This document shows, one piece after another, positions 10,677 through 63,650 of a DNA stretch of 64,000 nt (its first letter is position 1; each line of letters starts with the position of its first letter). This DNA comes from an uncultured Gammaproteobacteria bacterium. GTDB taxonomy: Bacteria; Pseudomonadota; Gammaproteobacteria; Magnimaribacterales; D2472. Location of the stretch: contig CAZFYG010000006.1 in assembly GCA_964523375.1 (NCBI GenBank), forward strand, positions 7,349-71,348. The letters are read 5' to 3'. The notes under the pieces are model-generated. The model made no database searches. It worked only from the letters and a program-made list of their open reading frames with translations, and had not been told where the DNA came from. The position numbers and the translations under genes are program-made.

Positions 10677-10705
10677 AAAAAAAGGGTGCGGATGCACCCT
10701 TTTTT
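10677..10705 (-). terminator. intrinsic terminator after hupB (bidirectional-looking hairpin)
   Basis: A7-GGGTGC-GGAT-GCACCC-T6. A perfect 6-bp GC-rich stem with a tetraloop, flanked by an A run and a T run, lies 16 nt after the hupB stop. Confidence 0.8.
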
Positions 10706-56480: not shown

Positions 56481-57764
56481 TTACTTTTGCTTCTTGAGTC
56501 TTTTTTTGAGGTTTTTTAAATTTAAATTTCCTGGTGAACCAGGTGATGAATTAATTAATTTACCAGAAATTTCTTGGCCATCTTTCTTAGAGGTTTTAAT
56601 TTTATTATAAGCATCTCTAAAAGCCATTCCCTTAGATACTAATTCATAAACTCTATCAGTCATTTTCATATCATCATCTATGAACTTTATAGACTGCTCT
56701 TTATTAACTTGAATACTATATATTAAATCAGGCAAAATGCTCAATGTTGTAAGAGCTGTATTGAAGCCTCTAACGAGACCTCTTTTAGTAAGCTGTAAAT
56801 CTCTATGATAACCACTTGGTAGAGATATTAAGTTTTCTAATTCTGATGCATATCCAGCAATAATAGAATAATTTGCTCTCATAATTTCAATAACATCAGG
56901 ATTGTGCTTGTTAGGCATTATTGATGAGCCTGTTGAATACCTTTTATCAATTGAAAGAAGGTTAAATTCTTGCGATAAGAACAAGCTCATATCCCAAGAA
57001 AACTTCCTGATATCCATCATAGGCTGTTTAATTGTACTCAAAATTTGTGTTTCGTATTTGCCCCTACTATTTTGAACATACATACTATTTAGCTGCAATC
57101 TATTAAAACCTAAATCTTTTTTGGTAGATTCTCTATCAAGAGGGAGATTTACACCGTAACCTGCAGCTGTTCCAAGAGGATTCGAGTCAATCCAATCATA
57201 TGTGGCCTTTATAAGATCATAATTATCGATAAATGATTCAGCATAAGCAGAAAACCAAAGGCCCCACGAGGAAGGCATAGCTCTTTGAAGATGAGTATAT
57301 CCAGGCATTGGATCGTTCTCATATTTAATAGCCATATCTAGAAAAGCAGAGGCAATATCTTTATTCAAGCCATTAAGTTCTTTTAATTTTTCTTTAGCAA
57401 ATAATCTCATAGCTACAGCAACTTGATCATTTCTGCTCCTACCAGTATGTACTTTTTTACCCAAATCGCCATGGACCTCAGTAAGATAAAACTCTATTGC
57501 TGAATGGCAGTCTTCATATTCTTCTGAAAGCTTGAATTTATCTGCAAGATATTCCTTTTTTAGCTTTCTTAATGATCTTAATAATTTAGACAATTCACTT
57601 TTCTTTAATACGCCAATGTTATGAAGAGCAGTTATGTGAGCTGATGTTGCATCGATATCATATGGCAATAAAAACTTATCGAGCTCAATATCCTCTGAAG
57701 ATAAAAACAAACTAATTTCAGAAGAAGAGTCTTCTTGGTTAGCATTCCATATTTTTTTAGCCAT
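56481..57764 (-). CDS. argH: argininosuccinate lyase
   Basis: HTGRSRNDQV and GSSIMPNKHNPDV signature blocks. It overlaps argC by 8 nt. Confidence 0.92.
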   Translation of the reverse strand: MAKKIWNANQEDSSSEISLFLSSEDIELDKFLLPYDIDATSAHITALHNIGVLKKSELSKLLRSLRKLKKEYLADKFKLSEEYEDCHSAIEFYLTEVHGDLGKKVHTGRSRNDQVAVAMRLFAKEKLKELNGLNKDIASAFLDMAIKYENDPMPGYTHLQRAMPSSWGLWFSAYAESFIDNYDLIKATYDWIDSNPLGTAAGYGVNLPLDRESTKKDLGFNRLQLNSMYVQNSRGKYETQILSTIKQPMMDIRKFSWDMSLFLSQEFNLLSIDKRYSTGSSIMPNKHNPDVIEIMRANYSIIAGYASELENLISLPSGYHRDLQLTKRGLVRGFNTALTTLSILPDLIYSIQVNKEQSIKFIDDDMKMTDRVYELVSKGMAFRDAYNKIKTSKKDGQEISGKLINSSPGSPGNLNLKNLKKRLKKQK

Positions 57765-58698
57765 GTTTAATCCCTGTTAAATTATCTAAGTTGCAAGAAA
57801 TATTTAAGTTCTGAATTGCTTGAGTTGCCGCACCTTTAAGAAGATTATCAATGACACAACATACAACTATATTTTTTTTTGATAAATCTATTGAAAAGCC
57901 TCCAATAATTGCATTATGAGTATTTGCAACGTTATTGATCATAGGTTCATTGTTTATAATAGTAATAAGCTTTTTATCTTTATAAAAAATTTTATATAGA
58001 TTTATTAATGAATCAAGATCTACTTCATCTGATAGCTCTACATGTGATGTGATAAGAATGCCTCTAAAAAAATTAGCAACGTGAGGGCTAAAAAATATAT
58101 CTTTATAGCTATGAGCCCTAACCTCTCTTTCATGAATGTGATCTGCTAGTTTGTAAGGAATAATATTGTCTGAAAGGTTTTTAGGGTCATTTTTATCATT
58201 TGGAGAAGATCCAGCTCCGCTATAGCCTGAAATACCAATAGAAACTAATTTATTTTTAATAAGATTAGTAATGGGAGCCACGGATAATTGAATAGCGGTT
58301 GCATAACAGCCAGGATTGGATATGTTTGGATTTGGGCTACCATTATGTATTTCTGGAATCCTATAAACCCACTCATCATCAAACCTGTGATCAGAGCTTA
58401 AATCTATAATAATAATTGACTGTGAAACCTTTCTAATTACCTCGACATATTTAAAAGACTGTTCGTTTGGAAGAGCCAGAATTACAATATCTATATTATT
58501 TAGATTAATATCTTCTATTGTGAGTAGTGAGTATTTTAGGTCTTTATTTTTAGTATATTTTAAAACTCTTTCTCCAGCAGAGCTTGAAGAATAAGCTCGA
58601 TTTAGAGAAAAATTAGGGTGTATATTAATTAATTGAATGATTTCTTGACCTACATAGCCCCTCCCACCAAAGAGCGCTATATTAAAATTCTTAATCAT
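57757..58698 (-). CDS. argC: N-acetyl-gamma-glutamyl-phosphate reductase (short, type-2 form)
   Basis: GGRGYVG NAD-binding site and active-site NPGCYAT. The start is set at ATG 58698 (MIKNFNIALFG), overlapping the upstream stop by 8 nt (ATGATTAA). Confidence 0.9.
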   Translation of the reverse strand: MIKNFNIALFGGRGYVGQEIIQLINIHPNFSLNRAYSSSSAGERVLKYTKNKDLKYSLLTIEDINLNNIDIVILALPNEQSFKYVEVIRKVSQSIIIIDLSSDHRFDDEWVYRIPEIHNGSPNPNISNPGCYATAIQLSVAPITNLIKNKLVSIGISGYSGAGSSPNDKNDPKNLSDNIIPYKLADHIHEREVRAHSYKDIFFSPHVANFFRGILITSHVELSDEVDLDSLINLYKIFYKDKKLITIINNEPMINNVANTHNAIIGGFSIDLSKKNIVVCCVIDNLLKGAATQAIQNLNISCNLDNLTGIKHG

Positions 58699-59998
58699 AG
58701 ATAATTGTCCTTGGCTGCTTTGATGCAAACTGTATACAAGACACTAATTCATTTAAATCATCAATTCCTATCCAAAAAATATGCCATTTATCTATTTTTT
58801 GAAACCCATCAGCAACATCTTTATAAAATTTATTAATAGAATTAGTTGATGCAGATCTCCAAAATATTTTTCTATTTTCTTTTATCATCTTCTTCCACAT
58901 CGCATTACCAAGACCCTCTCCTTTTGCAGAGGGGATGACTGAGAACTTATCCATGTAAGTAACAGAATGGTCATTTGATAGAACAATTGCAGATCTTTCA
59001 CATTCACTAATTAGGTAGCTTTTTCTACCAGTATTGAAATAATTTGGCGCAAGTTTGCCATTGAAGGATGACTCTAAAATGCTTTTTAAGAATTTGGTTT
59101 GATTTTCATCAATACAATCATATCTAGAGATGTTGTGACCAGCTTTAACCAGTGTGCCTGATCCTGCATCAGTGAATAACTCCTTACTTAAATGAAGTGA
59201 GGTGGTAATAGATACAGAGCTTTTGGATGGAAGGACATCGGTTAGTAATTTTATTTGTTGAAGCTTTAGTTTCATGCCTGAGTGCAACCAACTTTCACTC
59301 ATTAATTGTTCATAATCATCATTAATATTTATATTCGTAATGAGTTGGTTGTTTTCATTAAATATACCTCCAACCTCAGATAGAAAGACAACCTTATCAG
59401 GCATAATTTCTTTAGCTAAAGCTAAAGTTGCCATATCTGCATTTATATTGACATCTTGAGTTGATTTGGTCTTGCCTAATGGTGATATAACAGGAACAAT
59501 ACCTTTGCTTATCGCCTTTGTAATCATTGCTGTTTTAACTCCTACTACATCTCCAACATAACCCAATTCAGGATTATTTATCTCACAATTAAAAATATCA
59601 TTTACCAAAGAAACTGCATTAATATTATTTTCATTTAATAAATTAACTAAGTTAGTATTTTCTTCGGCAAAGACCTTTAAGGCTGTTTGTAGAACCTTTT
59701 CAGAACTAACTCTCTGGCCATCAATAAAAGAAAAATCAATTTTTTCTTTCTCAAGTCTTTCGCTTAGCATTGGTCCTGCACCATGAACAATAATAGGAAT
59801 AAGACCCACTTCGTTTAGAAACCCAATTGATGAGATTAAATTATCTATATCATTTTTAAGTATCGCTCCGCCCACTTTGATAAGCGCAAACCTGTAATCA
59901 TCTGATGAAAATCTCTCTATATATTTTCTAATTTCTTTTTCGCTACTCATCCCACTAAGTAGCTTTATAAAAGTATTTTTTGTGTAAGTTTTATTCAT
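58691..59998 (-). CDS. argA/B: bifunctional N-acetylglutamate synthase/kinase type protein (AAK domain plus vertebrate-like NAT domain)
   Basis: 435 aa. The N-terminal amino-acid kinase fold has ALIKVGGAIL and VHGAGP. The C-terminal roughly 150 aa carry MDKFSV..AKGEGLG and FWRSASTNSINKFY...WHIFWIG, resembling the NAGS acetyltransferase domain. Confidence 0.8.
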   Translation of the reverse strand: MNKTYTKNTFIKLLSGMSSEKEIRKYIERFSSDDYRFALIKVGGAILKNDIDNLISSIGFLNEVGLIPIIVHGAGPMLSERLEKEKIDFSFIDGQRVSSEKVLQTALKVFAEENTNLVNLLNENNINAVSLVNDIFNCEINNPELGYVGDVVGVKTAMITKAISKGIVPVISPLGKTKSTQDVNINADMATLALAKEIMPDKVVFLSEVGGIFNENNQLITNININDDYEQLMSESWLHSGMKLKLQQIKLLTDVLPSKSSVSITTSLHLSKELFTDAGSGTLVKAGHNISRYDCIDENQTKFLKSILESSFNGKLAPNYFNTGRKSYLISECERSAIVLSNDHSVTYMDKFSVIPSAKGEGLGNAMWKKMIKENRKIFWRSASTNSINKFYKDVADGFQKIDKWHIFWIGIDDLNELVSCIQFASKQPRTIIYD

Positions 59999-60001
59999 GA
60001 C

Positions 60002-61192
60002 TTATTTTTTGTTTACTTCTGCCCATGTTGCGGTGCTTTGTCCAAGCAGTTTTATAAATCCAGTTGATTCATCTGAGCTCCATGATGCAGATTGAGCATA
60101 TACAGCATCTTTTTTTACAAGCTTCTTCTTAGCATCAACCCCAACCGCATCTGCTCTTCCAGCAGTTAAATTAATCTCAACTGTTCCAGTGACAGAAGAT
60201 TGAATATCCTCAAGAAAATTTTCCAGATTTTTGGTTAATGGATCAAAGTAAAAACCGCTATAGACTAATTCAATCCATCTTTTTCCAATACTTGGTTTAA
60301 AGTGGTTCTGTTTATCTGTAAAAACGATCTCCTCAAGCGCTTTATGGGCTTTTTGAAGAATAGTTATACCTGGAGCTTCAAACAAAATTCGACCTTTAAT
60401 ACCTATGATCGTATCACCAGTAAAGATTTCTCTCCCCACACCATAACTTCCACCCAATGAATTTAAGTGCCTTAATAAATCTGGTCCATTTAAAGGCTTA
60501 CCATTAATTTTTTTCGCTTCTCCCTTAATAAAATCAATTGTTATTTTTTTGTCTTTTTTTGGATATTGGCTAGGCTTTTTGCACAAAATGTAGCTTTGGT
60601 CAGATGGTTGATTCCATTCATCTATCTCCGAGCCTGAAACGGTAGCACCCATAATATTTTCGTTAATACTATATTTTGAACTTAAAGATGATACTTTATA
60701 GCCTCTTTTGATAAGATATTCTTTCTCATACTCTCTAACATCTTTGGTAGTATTTTGGATTTCTCTAATTGGAGTGATGGTTTTAAAATTCCCAAGGGCT
60801 TGTATAGATAAATCAAACCTTACCTGATCATTACCCATTCCAGTGCAACCATGTGCAATATTCTTTGTCTTTAATTTTTTACATAATGCGACTGTTTCTT
60901 TTACTATCAAGTATCTGTCAGAGCAAAGTGCTGGATACCTGTCCTGATATAAAGATCCAGACCAAATTAAGGGTTTAATAATTTCCTTCCACAAAGGTTT
61001 GTCAATATTTTTATTAACATGCTTAATTGCACCAAGTTCAATTGCTCTTTTTGTTATTTTTTTTTGTTCTTCTAATGAGGTTCCACCAGTATTAATAAAA
61101 ATGGTATGGACCTCAAAGCCTTGTTCGACTAGATAGGGAACACAGAAACTAGTATCTAATCCACCTGAAAACGCTAAAACGATTTTTTTCAT
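60002..61192 (-). CDS. argG: argininosuccinate synthase
   Basis: AFSGGLDTS and GCTGMGNDQVRF blocks, 396 aa. Confidence 0.95.
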   Translation of the reverse strand: MKKIVLAFSGGLDTSFCVPYLVEQGFEVHTIFINTGGTSLEEQKKITKRAIELGAIKHVNKNIDKPLWKEIIKPLIWSGSLYQDRYPALCSDRYLIVKETVALCKKLKTKNIAHGCTGMGNDQVRFDLSIQALGNFKTITPIREIQNTTKDVREYEKEYLIKRGYKVSSLSSKYSINENIMGATVSGSEIDEWNQPSDQSYILCKKPSQYPKKDKKITIDFIKGEAKKINGKPLNGPDLLRHLNSLGGSYGVGREIFTGDTIIGIKGRILFEAPGITILQKAHKALEEIVFTDKQNHFKPSIGKRWIELVYSGFYFDPLTKNLENFLEDIQSSVTGTVEINLTAGRADAVGVDAKKKLVKKDAVYAQSASWSSDESTGFIKLLGQSTATWAEVNKK

Positions 61193-62193
61193 TTCTCTTC
61201 CTCTAATAATTTTGTTAGTAGTGATTTTTGAACATGCATTCTATTGTCTGCTTCCTGAATAGCCACACAATAATTAGAATCCATAACCCCGTCAGTGGCT
61301 TTTATATTTCGTCTTAAAGGCAAACAATGGCTGAACTTCGCATTATTTGTTAATGCCATTTTTTCTTCGTTAACAATAAAATGCTTGTATTTATCTCTTA
61401 TTAGCTTTTCTTCGCTAGGATTTCCATAATAATTGAGAGAGCCCCAGCTTTTTGCATAGACAATGTCAGCATTTTTATAACCATGCTCAATATCATTTGT
61501 TACCTCAAACGACCTTCCATTTAGTTCACAATTTTTCTTTGCTGTATTCATATAGCTGTCGTGCAAAAGATAATCATTTGTTGGACATAGTAGTTTTACA
61601 TTCATTCCAAATTTACTAGCAATTAATATTGATGAATTTGCAACTGCTGTATTTAATGGTTTAGGGTGATAGGTCCATGTAAGAAGGTAGTCTTTTCCAG
61701 AAAGGTCTCCTAATTGTTCTTGCATAGTTAAGATATGGGCTAATTCTTGGCATGGGTGCGTTATTGTTTCCATATTTACAACTGGGACAGAGGCATATTT
61801 AGCAAAGCTTTTAATAACGTTATCAGACAAGTCTTCTTCTAAATTTTTAAATTTAGGAAAAGATCTTATGGCTATAAGATCACAATATGAAGACAGCACT
61901 TTTGCAACTTCTATAATATGCTCTTCGGCCTCCCCATCCATAACCTCGTTTAACTTAAACTCAATTGGCCAAGCATCTTTGCCAGGATGGAGAACAACTG
62001 CAAGCCCTCCCATCTCTTGTATACCAAGCTCAAAACTTGTTCTTGTTCTCATAGATGGGTTGAAGAAAAGCAATGCTATAGATTTATTTTTTAAATTATT
62101 TTGGAATTTATTAGTTTTTAGATCTTTTGCATAATCTAAAATTTCTTGCAAGTCTGATTTTGACCAGTCATGTGTAGAAATAAAATTTTTCAT
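61189..62193 (-). CDS. argF': N-acetylornithine carbamoyltransferase-type transcarbamylase
   Basis: FFNPSMRTRTSFE, GKDAWPIEF, NMETITHPCQELAH, TWTYHPKPLNTAVANS and FSHCLPLRRN closely match my recollection of the Xanthomonas acetylornithine transcarbamylase, not classical ArgF/ArgI (which has HPTQ and HCLP with an SMG loop). Confidence 0.85.
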   Translation of the reverse strand: MKNFISTHDWSKSDLQEILDYAKDLKTNKFQNNLKNKSIALLFFNPSMRTRTSFELGIQEMGGLAVVLHPGKDAWPIEFKLNEVMDGEAEEHIIEVAKVLSSYCDLIAIRSFPKFKNLEEDLSDNVIKSFAKYASVPVVNMETITHPCQELAHILTMQEQLGDLSGKDYLLTWTYHPKPLNTAVANSSILIASKFGMNVKLLCPTNDYLLHDSYMNTAKKNCELNGRSFEVTNDIEHGYKNADIVYAKSWGSLNYYGNPSEEKLIRDKYKHFIVNEEKMALTNNAKFSHCLPLRRNIKATDGVMDSNYCVAIQEADNRMHVQKSLLTKLLEEEK

Positions 62194-62211
62194 AATTGCC
62201 TTTATTTAAAT

Positions 62212-62239
62212 AAAAAAAAACCCAGCAAAGGCTGGGTCT
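62212..62239 (-). terminator. intrinsic terminator (segments 3:4 of the proposed arg attenuator)
   Basis: On the minus strand: AGACCCAGC-CUUU-GCUGGGU(UU) followed by a U9 tract. It ends 18 nt before the argF' ATG. Confidence 0.75.
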
Positions 62240-62275
62240 AATTCACAATAGAAGAGACCCAGCTATATTGCCGGA
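62231..62275 (-). promoter_or_regulatory. alternative antiterminator (2:3) and anti-antiterminator (1:2) helices of the proposed arg leader
   Basis: Seg2 GCUGGGUCU (62263-62255) is perfectly complementary (9 bp) to seg3 AGACCCAGC (62239-62231). Seg1 UCCGGC (62275-62270) can pair with the 5' part of seg2. Confidence 0.5.
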
Positions 62276-62307
62276 ACCCGTCTTGTTTGTGTATTTGTGT
62301 TAATCAT
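62263..62307 (-). CDS. candidate arg operon leader peptide MINTNTQTRRVPAI (14 aa)
   Basis: ATG ATT AAC ACA AAT ACA CAA ACA AGA CGG GTT CCG GCA ATA TAG, with tandem Arg codons at 62283-62278. The stop codon overlaps the first base of seg2. Confidence 0.4.
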   Translation of the reverse strand: MINTNTQTRRVPAI

Positions 62308-62314
62308 CGGATTT

Positions 62315-62342
62315 AGTATAGCTATAAAAAAAACTTTGTAAA
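62315..62342 (-). promoter_or_regulatory. possible sigma70 promoter of the arg leader/operon
   Basis: On the minus strand: TTTACA (62342-62337), 16 nt, TATACT (62320-62315). The leader ATG begins 8 nt after the -10. Confidence 0.4.
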
Positions 62343-62356
62343 CAACCCAAAAAATA

Positions 62357-63505
62357 CTAATTATTTATTCTTGAAGCTAGGTTTTTATGAAAATTTACAA
62401 TTGCTTTTTCAAATAGCCCAAATGTTAAGTGGGTGTTTGCAGCTGTAGTGACTGTTTCCTGAATAGCACATGCAGCCTCTCTATCTTCGCTTTGACCTGA
62501 TTCATTTACAAATTGGGCATCTTTTTTCACTTCTTCGAGTGAAAGACTGTTAGCGCCACTTTTTTTATTATAAACAAGGTAGCTCACTGTTTTTACGCTT
62601 GATGGAGACAATGGCTCCATTATTGTTAAGCTTGTATGTTTGGATAAAAGAGAGATACTAGCATTGGGAAAAAGATGGTACACGGAAGTTGCTACTCCGT
62701 TTAATTTTCTTTTTTCAGGCTCAATATCTCTAATTTTTTCAATTCTCTTGAACGGGAAAATAATTCTTGAGTTAGGTCCATCAGTTTCTACAACGTTAAC
62801 ATTATTTAAACCATAAGGATAAAAAGTATTTTTATGTAAAGATTTTATGTGGTATCCCTCTAATAATGTTTCTGTAAGTAATTTCCAGTTTGTTTCATCT
62901 GTAACTTCGCCTTGATCAAATAACACTGCATCTGGTCCAAAGTAATTAAGAGAGTTATTTATAAAATTACTGTCTATGACTCCCTCTTGTTGAATATAAA
63001 CTAGCCCTCCCTTCTCAACTGTACTTACCTCTACAAGACCATTATCTTTAGAATCTAGATTTGGAAATCCGCCTTGCCCTGGAATGTTTTTTAAGGAGCC
63101 ATCTAGAGAGTATGACCATGCATGATAAGGGCATACAAAAGCTTTCTTTTTGCAACCATTGCCACTTGCAACCTTCATTCCCCTGTGCCTACAAGCATTG
63201 ATGAATGCCCTTACTTTTCCATCCTCACCCCTAACAACAAGAAGAGGTGTTCCTGAAGCTCTGCGAGCAATATAGCTACCATTTTCAATTAACGCAGCAG
63301 ATGGACAAAATGGGATTGGCAATCTTCTTAATAAAGCAATTTCTGAATCAAAACGTTTTTGAGTATGATAATTTTCAACTGGCTCTTTCCAAACCTCGGA
63401 ACCCAAATCAGTAGTTCCATTATCTATATGTGTAAATATTTTGTCGATCGCATCTTGGTCATTTAAAAAATTATTAGTCGAAAATGGATTGATAGTCTTT
63501 TGCAT
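62357..63505 (-). CDS. Rieske [2Fe-2S] non-haem-iron oxygenase, alpha-subunit-like
   Basis: Rieske motif CRHRG...CPYHAWSY and a catalytic-domain region (EGYHIKSLH). The start is set at ATG 63505 (MQKTINPF), because the ORF-track extension reads through tRNA-Leu. Confidence 0.8.
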   Translation of the reverse strand: MQKTINPFSTNNFLNDQDAIDKIFTHIDNGTTDLGSEVWKEPVENYHTQKRFDSEIALLRRLPIPFCPSAALIENGSYIARRASGTPLLVVRGEDGKVRAFINACRHRGMKVASGNGCKKKAFVCPYHAWSYSLDGSLKNIPGQGGFPNLDSKDNGLVEVSTVEKGGLVYIQQEGVIDSNFINNSLNYFGPDAVLFDQGEVTDETNWKLLTETLLEGYHIKSLHKNTFYPYGLNNVNVVETDGPNSRIIFPFKRIEKIRDIEPEKRKLNGVATSVYHLFPNASISLLSKHTSLTIMEPLSPSSVKTVSYLVYNKKSGANSLSLEEVKKDAQFVNESGQSEDREAACAIQETVTTAANTHLTFGLFEKAIVNFHKNLASRINN

Positions 63506-63565
63506 AATAATTGTTTCAAATGAGTTATAGATTGATGTTTGTACGATAGCACACGAAAGAATATA

Positions 63566-63650
63566 TGGTAGGGATGGAGGGAGTCGAACCCCCACGCCTT
63601 GCGGCACTTGGTTCTAAGCCAAGCGTGTCTACCAGTTCCACCACATCCCC
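63566..63650 (-). tRNA. tRNA-Leu (anticodon TAG), long variable arm, CCA encoded
   Basis: Hand-folded, 85 nt, with anticodon loop CTTAGAA, variable arm TGCCGCAAGGCG and T-loop TTCGACT. Confidence 0.88.

Follow-up and report, generated by a model that had tools for sequence, protein, structure and literature searches.

Introduction

Arginine biosynthesis is a standard example of repressor control, in which ArgR or AhrC acts at ARG boxes. Leader-peptide attenuation is taught for tryptophan, histidine, phenylalanine, leucine, threonine and isoleucine/valine, and to our knowledge it is not taught for arginine or lysine. Here we deal with a 163-nt spacer (62194-62356) in a 64,000-nucleotide stretch of DNA, referred to below as the window, from an uncultured gammaproteobacterium of the SAR86 clade (contig CAZFYG010000006.1). 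The spacer lies directly ahead of the operon argF'-argG-argA/B-argC-argH, and very probably acts as an Arg-tRNA-sensing leader-peptide transcription attenuator for these genes. An earlier reading of the DNA, made from the sequence alone, had proposed a classical attenuator of the trp/his/leu type at this position, and the proposal is supported by conservation, covariation, the geometry of the ribosome footprint and a paralogue with Lys codons.

The leader resembles trpL, hisL, leuL, thrL, ilvL and pheL in having a short open reading frame (ORF) with tandem codons for the amino acid made by its own operon. As in these classical attenuators, segments of the RNA (seg1 to seg4) can form 1:2, 2:3 and 3:4 helices, an intrinsic terminator is found just before the first structural gene, and the stop codon is placed to let a terminating ribosome mask seg2; two regulatory codons are present, as in trpL. 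The leader differs in being concerned with arginine, in showing no sequence similarity to the leader families of Rfam, and in that its mRNA apparently lacks both a 5' untranslated region and a Shine-Dalgarno sequence. Moreover, one of the regulatory codons is the rarest Arg codon of the genome.

Other systems share the purpose or the arrangement but not the mechanism. ArgR/AhrC likewise represses arg genes when arginine is plentiful, but does so through a protein-DNA mechanism that senses free arginine, and the spacer is without an ARG-box-like site: no 18-bp palindrome of this kind (WNTGAATWWWWATTCANW, up to 3 mismatches) occurs in 62194-62356, and the 78 matches in the window compare with 83.5 +/- 9.4 expected. 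In the fungal arg-2/CPA1 genes, an upstream ORF likewise places a gene of the arginine pathway under arginine control, but in this eukaryotic system free arginine is sensed by the nascent peptide, which blocks scanning ribosomes, with no terminator or antiterminator and no dependence on Arg codons. The closest arginine-related precedent is orf34 of Salmonella speF, where ribosomes pause at two consecutive Arg codons according to the availability of arginine (Ben-Zvi et al. 2019, PMC6386406). There too, a pause at Arg codons toggles downstream mRNA structures, but the gene encodes ornithine decarboxylase, a polyamine enzyme, the leader is long, and the outcome is exerted through RNase G sensitivity, Rho-dependent termination and access to the ribosome-binding site (PMC6386406). 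A 2005 survey gave T-boxes as the only known RNA regulation of arginine genes (PMC1262725). No Arg leader-peptide attenuator of biosynthetic operons was found in the full-text literature, subscription-only surveys (e.g., Russian comparative genomics) lying outside its scope, and the judgement of novelty in the sequence-only reading holds as far as this literature and Rfam 15 show.

The Leader Open Reading Frame and the Proposed Switch

The spacer is bounded by the stop codon of an upstream Rieske oxygenase gene (62357) and the argF' ATG (62193). All leader elements are given on the minus strand of the window, the DNA of which has a GC content of 34% (Table 1). The only ATG in the spacer, at 62307, opens the 14-codon ORF that had been described from the sequence, and which reads ATG ATT AAC ACA AAT ACA CAA ACA AGA CGG GTT CCG GCA ATA TAG. 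The interpretation that this ORF is read as codons, its translation being predicted, is supported. The adjacent AGA and CGG codons are likewise present as described, and the expectation that CGG would be rare was borne out by a codon count over 54 ORFs of the window, in which CGG, the rarest Arg codon, makes up only 3 of 630 Arg codons (0.5%; 0.16 per thousand codons) and AGA accounts for 68%.

Both promoter-like hexamers and their 16-nt spacing are as had been reported. The -10-like box is 7 nt (AAATCCG) away from the leader ATG, and the claim that no other ATG exists in the spacer stood. This short distance implies that the leader mRNA is leaderless, or nearly so, with a predicted start around 7 nt past TATACT. 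At the other end of the leader, the run of nine T residues and the 18 nt that separate it from the argF' ATG were correctly placed, leaving no space for a further promoter in SAR86.

In the proposed mechanism, transcription would start about 7 nt past TATACT, placing the 5' end of the leader mRNA at the AUG or immediately ahead of it, and a ribosome would then translate MINTNTQTRRVPAI. With ample Arg-tRNA, the ribosome would reach the UAG and cover seg2, allowing the 3:4 helix to form and transcription to terminate at the U9 tract ahead of argF'. If no ribosome were present, the long 1:2 hairpin would hold seg2 and the terminator would form likewise. When Arg-tRNA is scarce, a ribosome stalled at AGA-CGG would melt the 5' arm of the 1:2 hairpin and leave seg2 free. 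Seg2 would then pair over 9 bp with seg3 as soon as the latter is made, blocking the terminator so that the operon is transcribed. In this scheme, the sequence elements, their conservation and covariation and the geometry of the footprint are observed, and the start of transcription, the translation of the ORF and the arginine dependence are inferred.

The genes of the operon were identified as those for N-acetylornithine carbamoyltransferase (AOTCase; 528 bits against a cut-off of 288), argG, a bifunctional argA/B kinase-synthase, argC and argH. These identities agree with the sequence-only reading, which had also described all five genes as overlapping; argG and argA/B are in fact 3 nt apart.

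Table 1. Positions of the leader elements, the operon and the lysine-type copies of the leader (minus strand of the window unless a locus is named)
Feature	Location	Strand	Basis or remark
-35-like hexamer TTTACA	62337..62342	-	sequence; position kept in relatives
-10-like hexamer TATACT	62315..62320	-	16 nt past the -35-like hexamer, 7 nt ahead of the leader ATG
Leader ORF MINTNTQTRRVPAI (14 codons + UAG), predicted	62263..62307	-	sequence and homologous ORFs in relatives
Putative regulatory Arg codons AGA CGG	62278..62283	-	invariance, CGG rarity, footprint folding
1:2 hairpin, 5' arm CACAA..AGA.GGG..UCCGGC, including seg1 UCCGGC (62275-62270)	62270..62291	-	folding and pairing across SAR86
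seg2 GCUGGGUCU (62263-62255) and extended 1:2 3' arm (to 62244)	62244..62263	-	pairs with seg1 or seg3
seg3 AGACCCAGC	62231..62239	-	terminator 5' arm and antiterminator 3' arm
seg4 GCUGGGUUU (62226-62218) and U9 tract (62220-62212)	62212..62226	-	with seg3 forms the predicted intrinsic terminator
Operon argF'(AOTCase)-argG-argA/B-argC-argH	56481..62193	-	starts 18 nt past the U tract
Lysine-type leader copies	L082 1344-1491; L089 495-637; L090 191-332; L088 ~690-770 (interrupted by Ns)		

Alternative Helices and the Position of the Ribosome

The leader is predicted to fold with an energy of -32.2 kcal/mol, compared with -21.0 +/- 3.4 kcal/mol for shuffled versions (z = -3.3), and none of 200 shuffles was as stable. 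The four mutually exclusive segments of the sequence-only reading are found where they had been placed. The 6-bp helix that it gave for 1:2 did not survive: the hairpin is much longer, extends over 62291-62244 through the pairings CACAA/UUGUG, AGA/UCU, GGG/CUC and UCCGGC/GCUGGG, and therefore holds the Arg codons within its 5' arm. The first G of seg2 is the G of the leader UAG. The 2:3 antiterminator is a perfect helix of 9 bp with an energy of -15.0 kcal/mol (-18.2 kcal/mol with its inner stem), whereas the 3:4 terminator helix, with nine pairs, five of them G-C, and a 4-nt loop (CUUU), has an energy of -13.2 kcal/mol. Together, the extended 1:2 hairpin and 3:4 reach -31.3 kcal/mol.

The effect of a ribosome was represented by making 28 nt unavailable for pairing, from -12 to +15 around the P site. 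When one of the two Arg codons, AGA or CGG, occupies the A site (62298-62271 and 62295-62268, respectively), the mask covers the 5' arm of 1:2 and leaves seg2 free, and the minimum-energy fold is the 2:3 antiterminator. At the UAG (62280-62253) the whole of seg2 is covered and the terminator forms, and the unmasked RNA adopts 1:2 together with the terminator. Comparing the energies of the conformers had been suggested as a check, and the outcome, 2:3 for the stalled ribosome and the terminator for a ribosome at the UAG or for none, bears out the geometry that had been proposed, in which stalling hides seg1 but leaves seg2 exposed, and arrival at the stop codon masks seg2.

Distribution of the Leader among Relatives

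Proteins from genomes of the SAR86 cluster share 81-91% identity with the ArgF' protein of the window. A scan of species-representative genomes gave 80 argF' loci, from SAR86 and allied marine Gammaproteobacteria, Kangiella and Xanthomonadales, and in all of them 230-400 nt upstream of argF' were examined, 79 loci being informative. The complete module, made up of a short ORF in which Arg codons stand in tandem, a seg2-type complement, a hairpin and a U-tract, precedes argF' in 56 of the 79. In SAR86 it is found in 25 type-1 loci, which include the kind seen in the window, and in five type-2 loci, with ORFs of 14-16 codons; in both types the ORF ends in a UAG fused to GCUGG, followed by ACCCAGC-loop-GCUGGGU6-9. 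Kangiella contributes seven loci and one partial locus at a contig end, with longer ORFs that read ..QQRRRSRI.PAG.. or ..LRRRSFRIRKAGV.., and a further 19 loci are of the Xanthomonadales type, where an ORF containing ..LTSARAAAGMTSRARRPE.... and ending in AG-stop is followed by the terminator. In 16 loci, all of SAR86, the arrangement is also Arg-rich but of another form, which lacks a U tract, and the remaining six (four of SAR86 and two of Planctomycetota) have neither. The short ORF, the Arg codons and the complementary segments are thus kept, as the sequence-only reading would have it, in 30 SAR86 species, 7-8 Kangiella genomes and the 19 Xanthomonadales-type loci.

This distribution bears on the simplest explanation, namely that the hairpin is there to end transcription of the upstream gene, or of some spurious RNA, in the usual way, that the mini-ORF arose by chance, and that expression of the arg operon depends on constitutive read-through or on a promoter that escaped recognition. 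Promoter-like and terminator-like matches do occur at chance frequency in AT-rich DNA, and short ORFs are common; the promoter consensus alone is not significant, as 10 kb contain 30 such sites where 42.7 would be expected. Yet the promoter-like boxes follow the upstream stop codon and precede the hairpin, and their position is kept: (G)TTTACA is found at a constant distance from the leader ATG in 25 of 25 type-1 SAR86 loci, irrespective of the upstream gene, and TATACT or TATAAT occurs 7-9 nt ahead of the ATG in loci of this type. Among carriers of the module, the identity of ArgF' falls to as low as 61% and the upstream genes vary (Rieske oxygenase, tRNA-Leu and others). The module stays with argF' when its upstream neighbours change, the ORF with its Arg pair persists in all of about 50 distinct leaders (a single Arg remaining in L046 and L059), and the 9-bp 2:3 complementarity is kept with covariation, all of which makes a chance origin extremely improbable.

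Conservation of the Peptide and of the Pairing

Each of the approximately 50 distinct leaders has a homologous ORF, which carries RR, RRR or RRRR in every lineage, L046 and L059 excepted. The hexanucleotide AGACGG is unchanged in 17 of 17 distinct type-1 SAR86 leaders, and in SAR86 peptides every residue varies save the initiating M, a Q and RR. The peptides of the four lineages, with examples such as ..TRRVPAI-stop, ..QQRRRSRI.., ..MTSRARRPE..AG-stop and ..FRRRRYY.., are unrelated except for tandem Arg just 5' of seg1/seg2. Within the Xanthomonadales block GMTSRARRP, the differences are solely synonymous changes at third positions (CGC/CGT, ACT/ACC and GGC/GGA/GGG).

Such retention of a peptide over some 19 residues in Xanthomonadales (LTSARAAAGMTSRARRPE) is more than codon sensing needs, and could point to a nascent peptide that detects free arginine, on the model of the fungal arginine attenuator peptide (AAP) or of TnaC, rather than to a response to uncharged tRNA. 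The freedom with which the SAR86 peptide varies outside RR, and the lack of relationship between the peptides of the four lineages, are hard to reconcile with this idea. It would also give the wrong sign of response, as a stall at RR under high arginine would free seg2 and raise biosynthetic expression. The conservation in the GC-rich Xanthomonadales leaders is explicable by extra RNA structure, as found in the consensus of the Rfam family Xoo5 (see below), and sensing by the peptide itself is very unlikely.

In a Kangiella leader (L055, ~224-150 nt ahead of argF'), a 15-nt unit, GTTTTAACAGCACAA, has been triplicated in tandem to give VLTAQ three times in the N-terminal part of the leader ORF, which illustrates the lack of constraint on that stretch of the peptide.

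The pairing of the RNA can be followed across lineages in a MAFFT alignment of 42 distinct leaders (A2), where the three cores align and the spacers are unalignable. Terminator positions are paired in 92.8% and antiterminator positions in 91.4% of cases, compared with 18-69% when the partners are slid by 1-3 columns. Compensatory change in segs 2/3/4, which had been named as a check on the attenuator, is seen as a three-way exchange: columns 49, 113 and 124, in seg2, seg3 and seg4, respectively, hold U/A/U in 30 sequences and C/G/C in the other 12, with no exceptions. Furthermore, the pair 46:116 is G-C in 17 sequences and A-U in 13, and an A-U pair at the base of the terminator has become G-C in L074. 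Within SAR86, the seg2/3/4 cores are invariant, UAGCUGG being unchanged throughout, and covariation inside the clade is consequently unusable. The extended 1:2 hairpin is paired in 81.6% of cells over 23 SAR86 leaders, as against 44-51% in slid controls, and different Kangiella species attain 1:2 pairing by different sequences (CAGCUUUC/GGAAGGCUG in one case and CAGCCG/CGGCUG in another).

At column 53 of the same alignment, in seg2, a change of GCUGGG to GCUGGA, or of GCCGGG to GCCGGA, recurs in SAR86 leaders and in leaders of the Rhodanobacteraceae type (for example L005, L009, L013, L018 and L019; L061, L070, L073 and L078). The resulting A·C mismatch weakens the antiterminator and may tune the switch.

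A Lysine Paralogue of the Leader

A regular-expression scan for further copies of the scaffold found none elsewhere in the window and one extra copy in locus L024. This second copy (55-202) lies 3.8 kb upstream of the arg leader of L024 and precedes dapB-dapA-dapD-lysA. It has the same promoter-like boxes, an ORF that ends in ..PAI-stop joined to UAGCUGGCGUCUGC, and then AUAGACCCAGC..GCUGGGU8. The peptide it would encode is (V/M)SKLNRKESKRKPAI, in comparison with MFNLIGKERNRRPAI for the arg leader of the same locus. A protein search for DapB homologues, followed by inspection of their contigs, gave the leader peptides MKILRNNKTKLKPAI and MKVLRNNKAKLKPAT, and a complete scaffold stands 24 nt ahead of dapB in L089 and L090. 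These leaders end in ..KESKRKPAI-stop or ..NNKTKLKPAI-stop, carry UAGCUGG and ACCCAGC-loop-GCUGGGU8-9, and come before dapB-dapA(-dapD-lysA). A metagenome scan with the DapB-like protein of L024 returned only two loci, which are identical, and in three loci with the order lysC-dapB-dapA-dapD (L083, L085 and L086) neither such a leader nor an Rfam match was found in the ~150 nt upstream.

When the homologous arg and lys leaders are aligned (A3), the last eight codons contain 50 R and 4 K in the arg leaders and 2 R and 13 K in the lys leaders (Fisher P 6e-9, a value that is descriptive only since the sequences are related). The regulatory codons therefore follow the pathway when the operon changes, as a codon-sensing model requires. 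From their sequences, the dapB leaders look like a lysine leader-peptide attenuator, a device of which no description was found in the literature for biosynthetic operons.

Relation to the Small RNA Xoo5 of Xanthomonas

The leaders of two Xanthomonas loci, L071 (3747-3870) and L077 (3748-3870), match the Rfam family RF02242, "Xoo5", with 97-101 bits (gathering threshold 50). The model starts as cuAUG at the leader start codon and stops ~30 nt short of the terminator. Xoo5 was cloned from X. oryzae as a small RNA (sRNA) of 124 nt located between PXO_00354 and PXO_00353, and a table in the same paper gives the latter gene as encoding N-acetylornithine carbamoyltransferase (Liang et al. 2011, PMC3039613). 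Its 5' end, determined by rapid amplification of cDNA ends, is 2 nt before the leader AUG, and Northern blots gave bands of ~130 and ~100 nt; the paper makes no mention of a leader peptide, of arginine or of downstream attenuation (PMC3039613). A start site has also been reported for the homologue in X. campestris pv. vesicatoria (Schmidtke et al., PMC3300014). These data support a promoter immediately ahead of the AUG, an mRNA that is almost leaderless and the accumulation of a short leader RNA. The 7-9 nt between the -10-like box and the ATG in type-1 SAR86 loci agree with a leaderless design of this kind.

Xoo5 shares with the SAR86 leader a co-oriented position just upstream of argF', an Arg-rich ORF and a seg2 (CGCUGGGUGA), and after it comes the homologous terminator, of the form ACCCAGCC-loop-GGCUGGGU6. 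It differs in being catalogued as a trans-type sRNA and in its peptide of 33-35 residues, against 14. As the window gives no Xoo5 match at the gathering threshold or at E <= 10, the kinship, as read from the sequences, is one of context and of shared seg2/3/4 cores and not of the covariance model. Xoo5 is probably the orthologous element in another order, mis-typed in Rfam, and a cis-regulatory leader.

The filing of RF02242 as "Gene; sRNA" raises the converse possibility, that the element upstream of argF' is an independent trans-acting sRNA gene which ends at its own terminator. The discrete Northern bands in X. oryzae would suit such a gene, and the best sub-threshold Rfam matches in the window are to the 3' ends of sRNAs. 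A terminated leader would itself be expected to show as a short RNA, however, and an sRNA gene would not account for an element that is always co-oriented directly before argF' in three orders, with only 18 nt after the terminator in SAR86. Nor would it explain the retention of an ORF with Arg codons under synonymous-only variation, the alternative helix that competes with the terminator, or an exchange of Arg for Lys codons that tracks the identity of the operon. The sRNA interpretation is accordingly considered very unlikely, although the element may have a dual role.

Evidence Weighing against the Proposed Attenuator

A number of observations count against an Arg-codon attenuator and have to be set beside those that favour it. 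With respect to the codons, there are just two, one of which (AGA) is the Arg codon used most often; in L046 and L059 only one Arg is left (LRGQLI); and efficient translation of a leaderless ORF of 14 codons is assumed. With respect to the RNA, RNAalifold applied to the 23 SAR86 leaders yields the terminator only, with no covariation and without recovering a 1:2 consensus, the covariation seen across orders may rest on one or two evolutionary events only, and about 10 leaders carry the A·C mismatch (GCUGGA) in 2:3. The sizes of Xoo5 (124 nt, and ~130 and ~100 nt) fall short of the ~157 nt that a transcript ending at the Xanthomonas U-tract should have. Finally, at equilibrium the full-length leaders of most relatives favour the terminator despite a ribosome stalled at Arg, and in a transcript ending at seg3 the unmasked RNA of the window forms 2:3 too.

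The equilibrium result has a bearing on how the switch could operate. The antiterminator is the minimum-energy fold of the masked leader only in the closest relatives of the window, and as the terminator usually wins, the choice must be kinetic, with 2:3 forming before seg4 is made. Equilibrium folding of masked leaders was for this reason rejected as a test of the relatives, and was replaced by the folding of transcripts that end at seg3. In these, the Arg codons of SAR86 and Kangiella are the last codons at which a stalled ribosome leaves seg2 free for seg3, and the results are noisy for the GC-rich leaders of Xanthomonadales.

That equilibrium folding alone gives no antitermination in most relatives could also be taken to mean that the switch is set by an RNA-binding protein, or by a small molecule as in a riboswitch, with the short ORF being incidental. 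In keeping with this, the cores GCUGGG/CCCAGC are unusually invariant from SAR86 to Xanthomonas, which could reflect a bound factor. Beyond the three short segments, though, nothing is kept between the orders, which leaves no conserved structure of the size of an aptamer, and what is conserved consists of the ORF, its start codon and its tandem Arg codons. An Rfam scan of the window brought only tRNAs to the gathering threshold, with no riboswitch, T-box or leader family, and at E <= 10 nothing relevant was found over 62100-62500, the sub-threshold matches being generic terminator look-alikes. In addition, the paralogue with Lys codons precedes lysine genes. Control by such a factor is consequently very improbable, and the codon-sensing attenuator is preferred.

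A Proposed Family and Its Significance

Taken more broadly, it seems reasonably likely, if less so than attenuation at the locus itself, that the leaders of SAR86, Kangiella and Xanthomonadales, including Xoo5, form an undescribed family of Arg attenuators that replaces ArgR, is read from leaderless mRNA and has been codon-swapped to Lys for dapB-dapA-dapD-lysA. If this is true, the strategy of codon sensing extends to Arg and Lys, and its reach covers an abundant ocean clade, the cultivable marine genus Kangiella and the plant pathogens of Xanthomonas. A concrete function would also be provided for Xoo5, a detected but unexplained "sRNA" that would have to be re-filed as a cis-regulatory leader, and the leader would be a natural instance of a leaderless mRNA that serves as a sensor. 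An Arg/Lys pair of paralogues on one scaffold would offer a design for the testing and engineering of attenuator specificity. For streamlined genomes such as those of SAR86, it would mean that pathway regulation is possible without dedicated transcription factors.

Surrounding Features and Other Arrangements

The hairpin of the arg leader had been described as one of two such terminators in the 64 kb, and this agrees with the single other strong GC-rich hairpin with T/A runs that was found, at 10677-10705 (both strands; AAAAAAGGGUGC-AUCC-GCACCCUUUUUU). It sits between an HU-like gene, downstream of an 802-aa ORF, and an ORF of 624 aa that begins 19 nt on. As a second attenuator it was rejected, for it has no leader ORF, and it is thus taken as an ordinary terminator, by our reading that of hupB in a lon-hupB-ppiD arrangement.

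Upstream of the spacer, a tRNA-Leu(UAG) gene (63566-63650, minus strand) overlaps the 5' end of the mechanically called ORF 62357-63607, and the start of the oxygenase must therefore be further downstream. In nine other loci (L009-L016 and L018), a similar tRNA 3' end, and not the oxygenase, lies directly upstream of the promoter of the arg leader.

The SAR86 loci with the other Arg-rich arrangement are of two kinds. In L028, L030, L035, L038, L041, L042, L049, L050 and L054, an Arg-rich ORF lies ~160-35 nt before argF'; ORF ends of these other clades include ..TRRRRRSI-stop, ..VKRRLRSI-stop and ..KLRSL-stop, and AGATC..TAA and AATG motifs are kept, without a U-tract terminator. In L032, L033, L036, L037, L039, L045 and L051, the tail ..PTQRIRSL-stop is the in-frame C-terminus of a PanD-like ORF, itself preceded by a panC-like ORF. 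A mini-ORF of 2-8 codons is also seen in loci of the other clades, often ending in an ATGA that overlaps the argF' start. A "type 3" SAR86 hairpin noticed by eye was set aside, as RNAalifold gave no consensus structure for it.

In a Dokdonella metagenome-assembled genome (L067, 3660-4000), the ~340 nt between the terminator of the arg leader and argF' are made up of three tandem repeats of ~110 nt (..GGAGCAATTGCAGGCGATCGCCATGGAAGGAATGCACCACCCTCACCCCAACCC..), which, as judged from the sequence, is an insertion that parts the putative attenuator from its operon.

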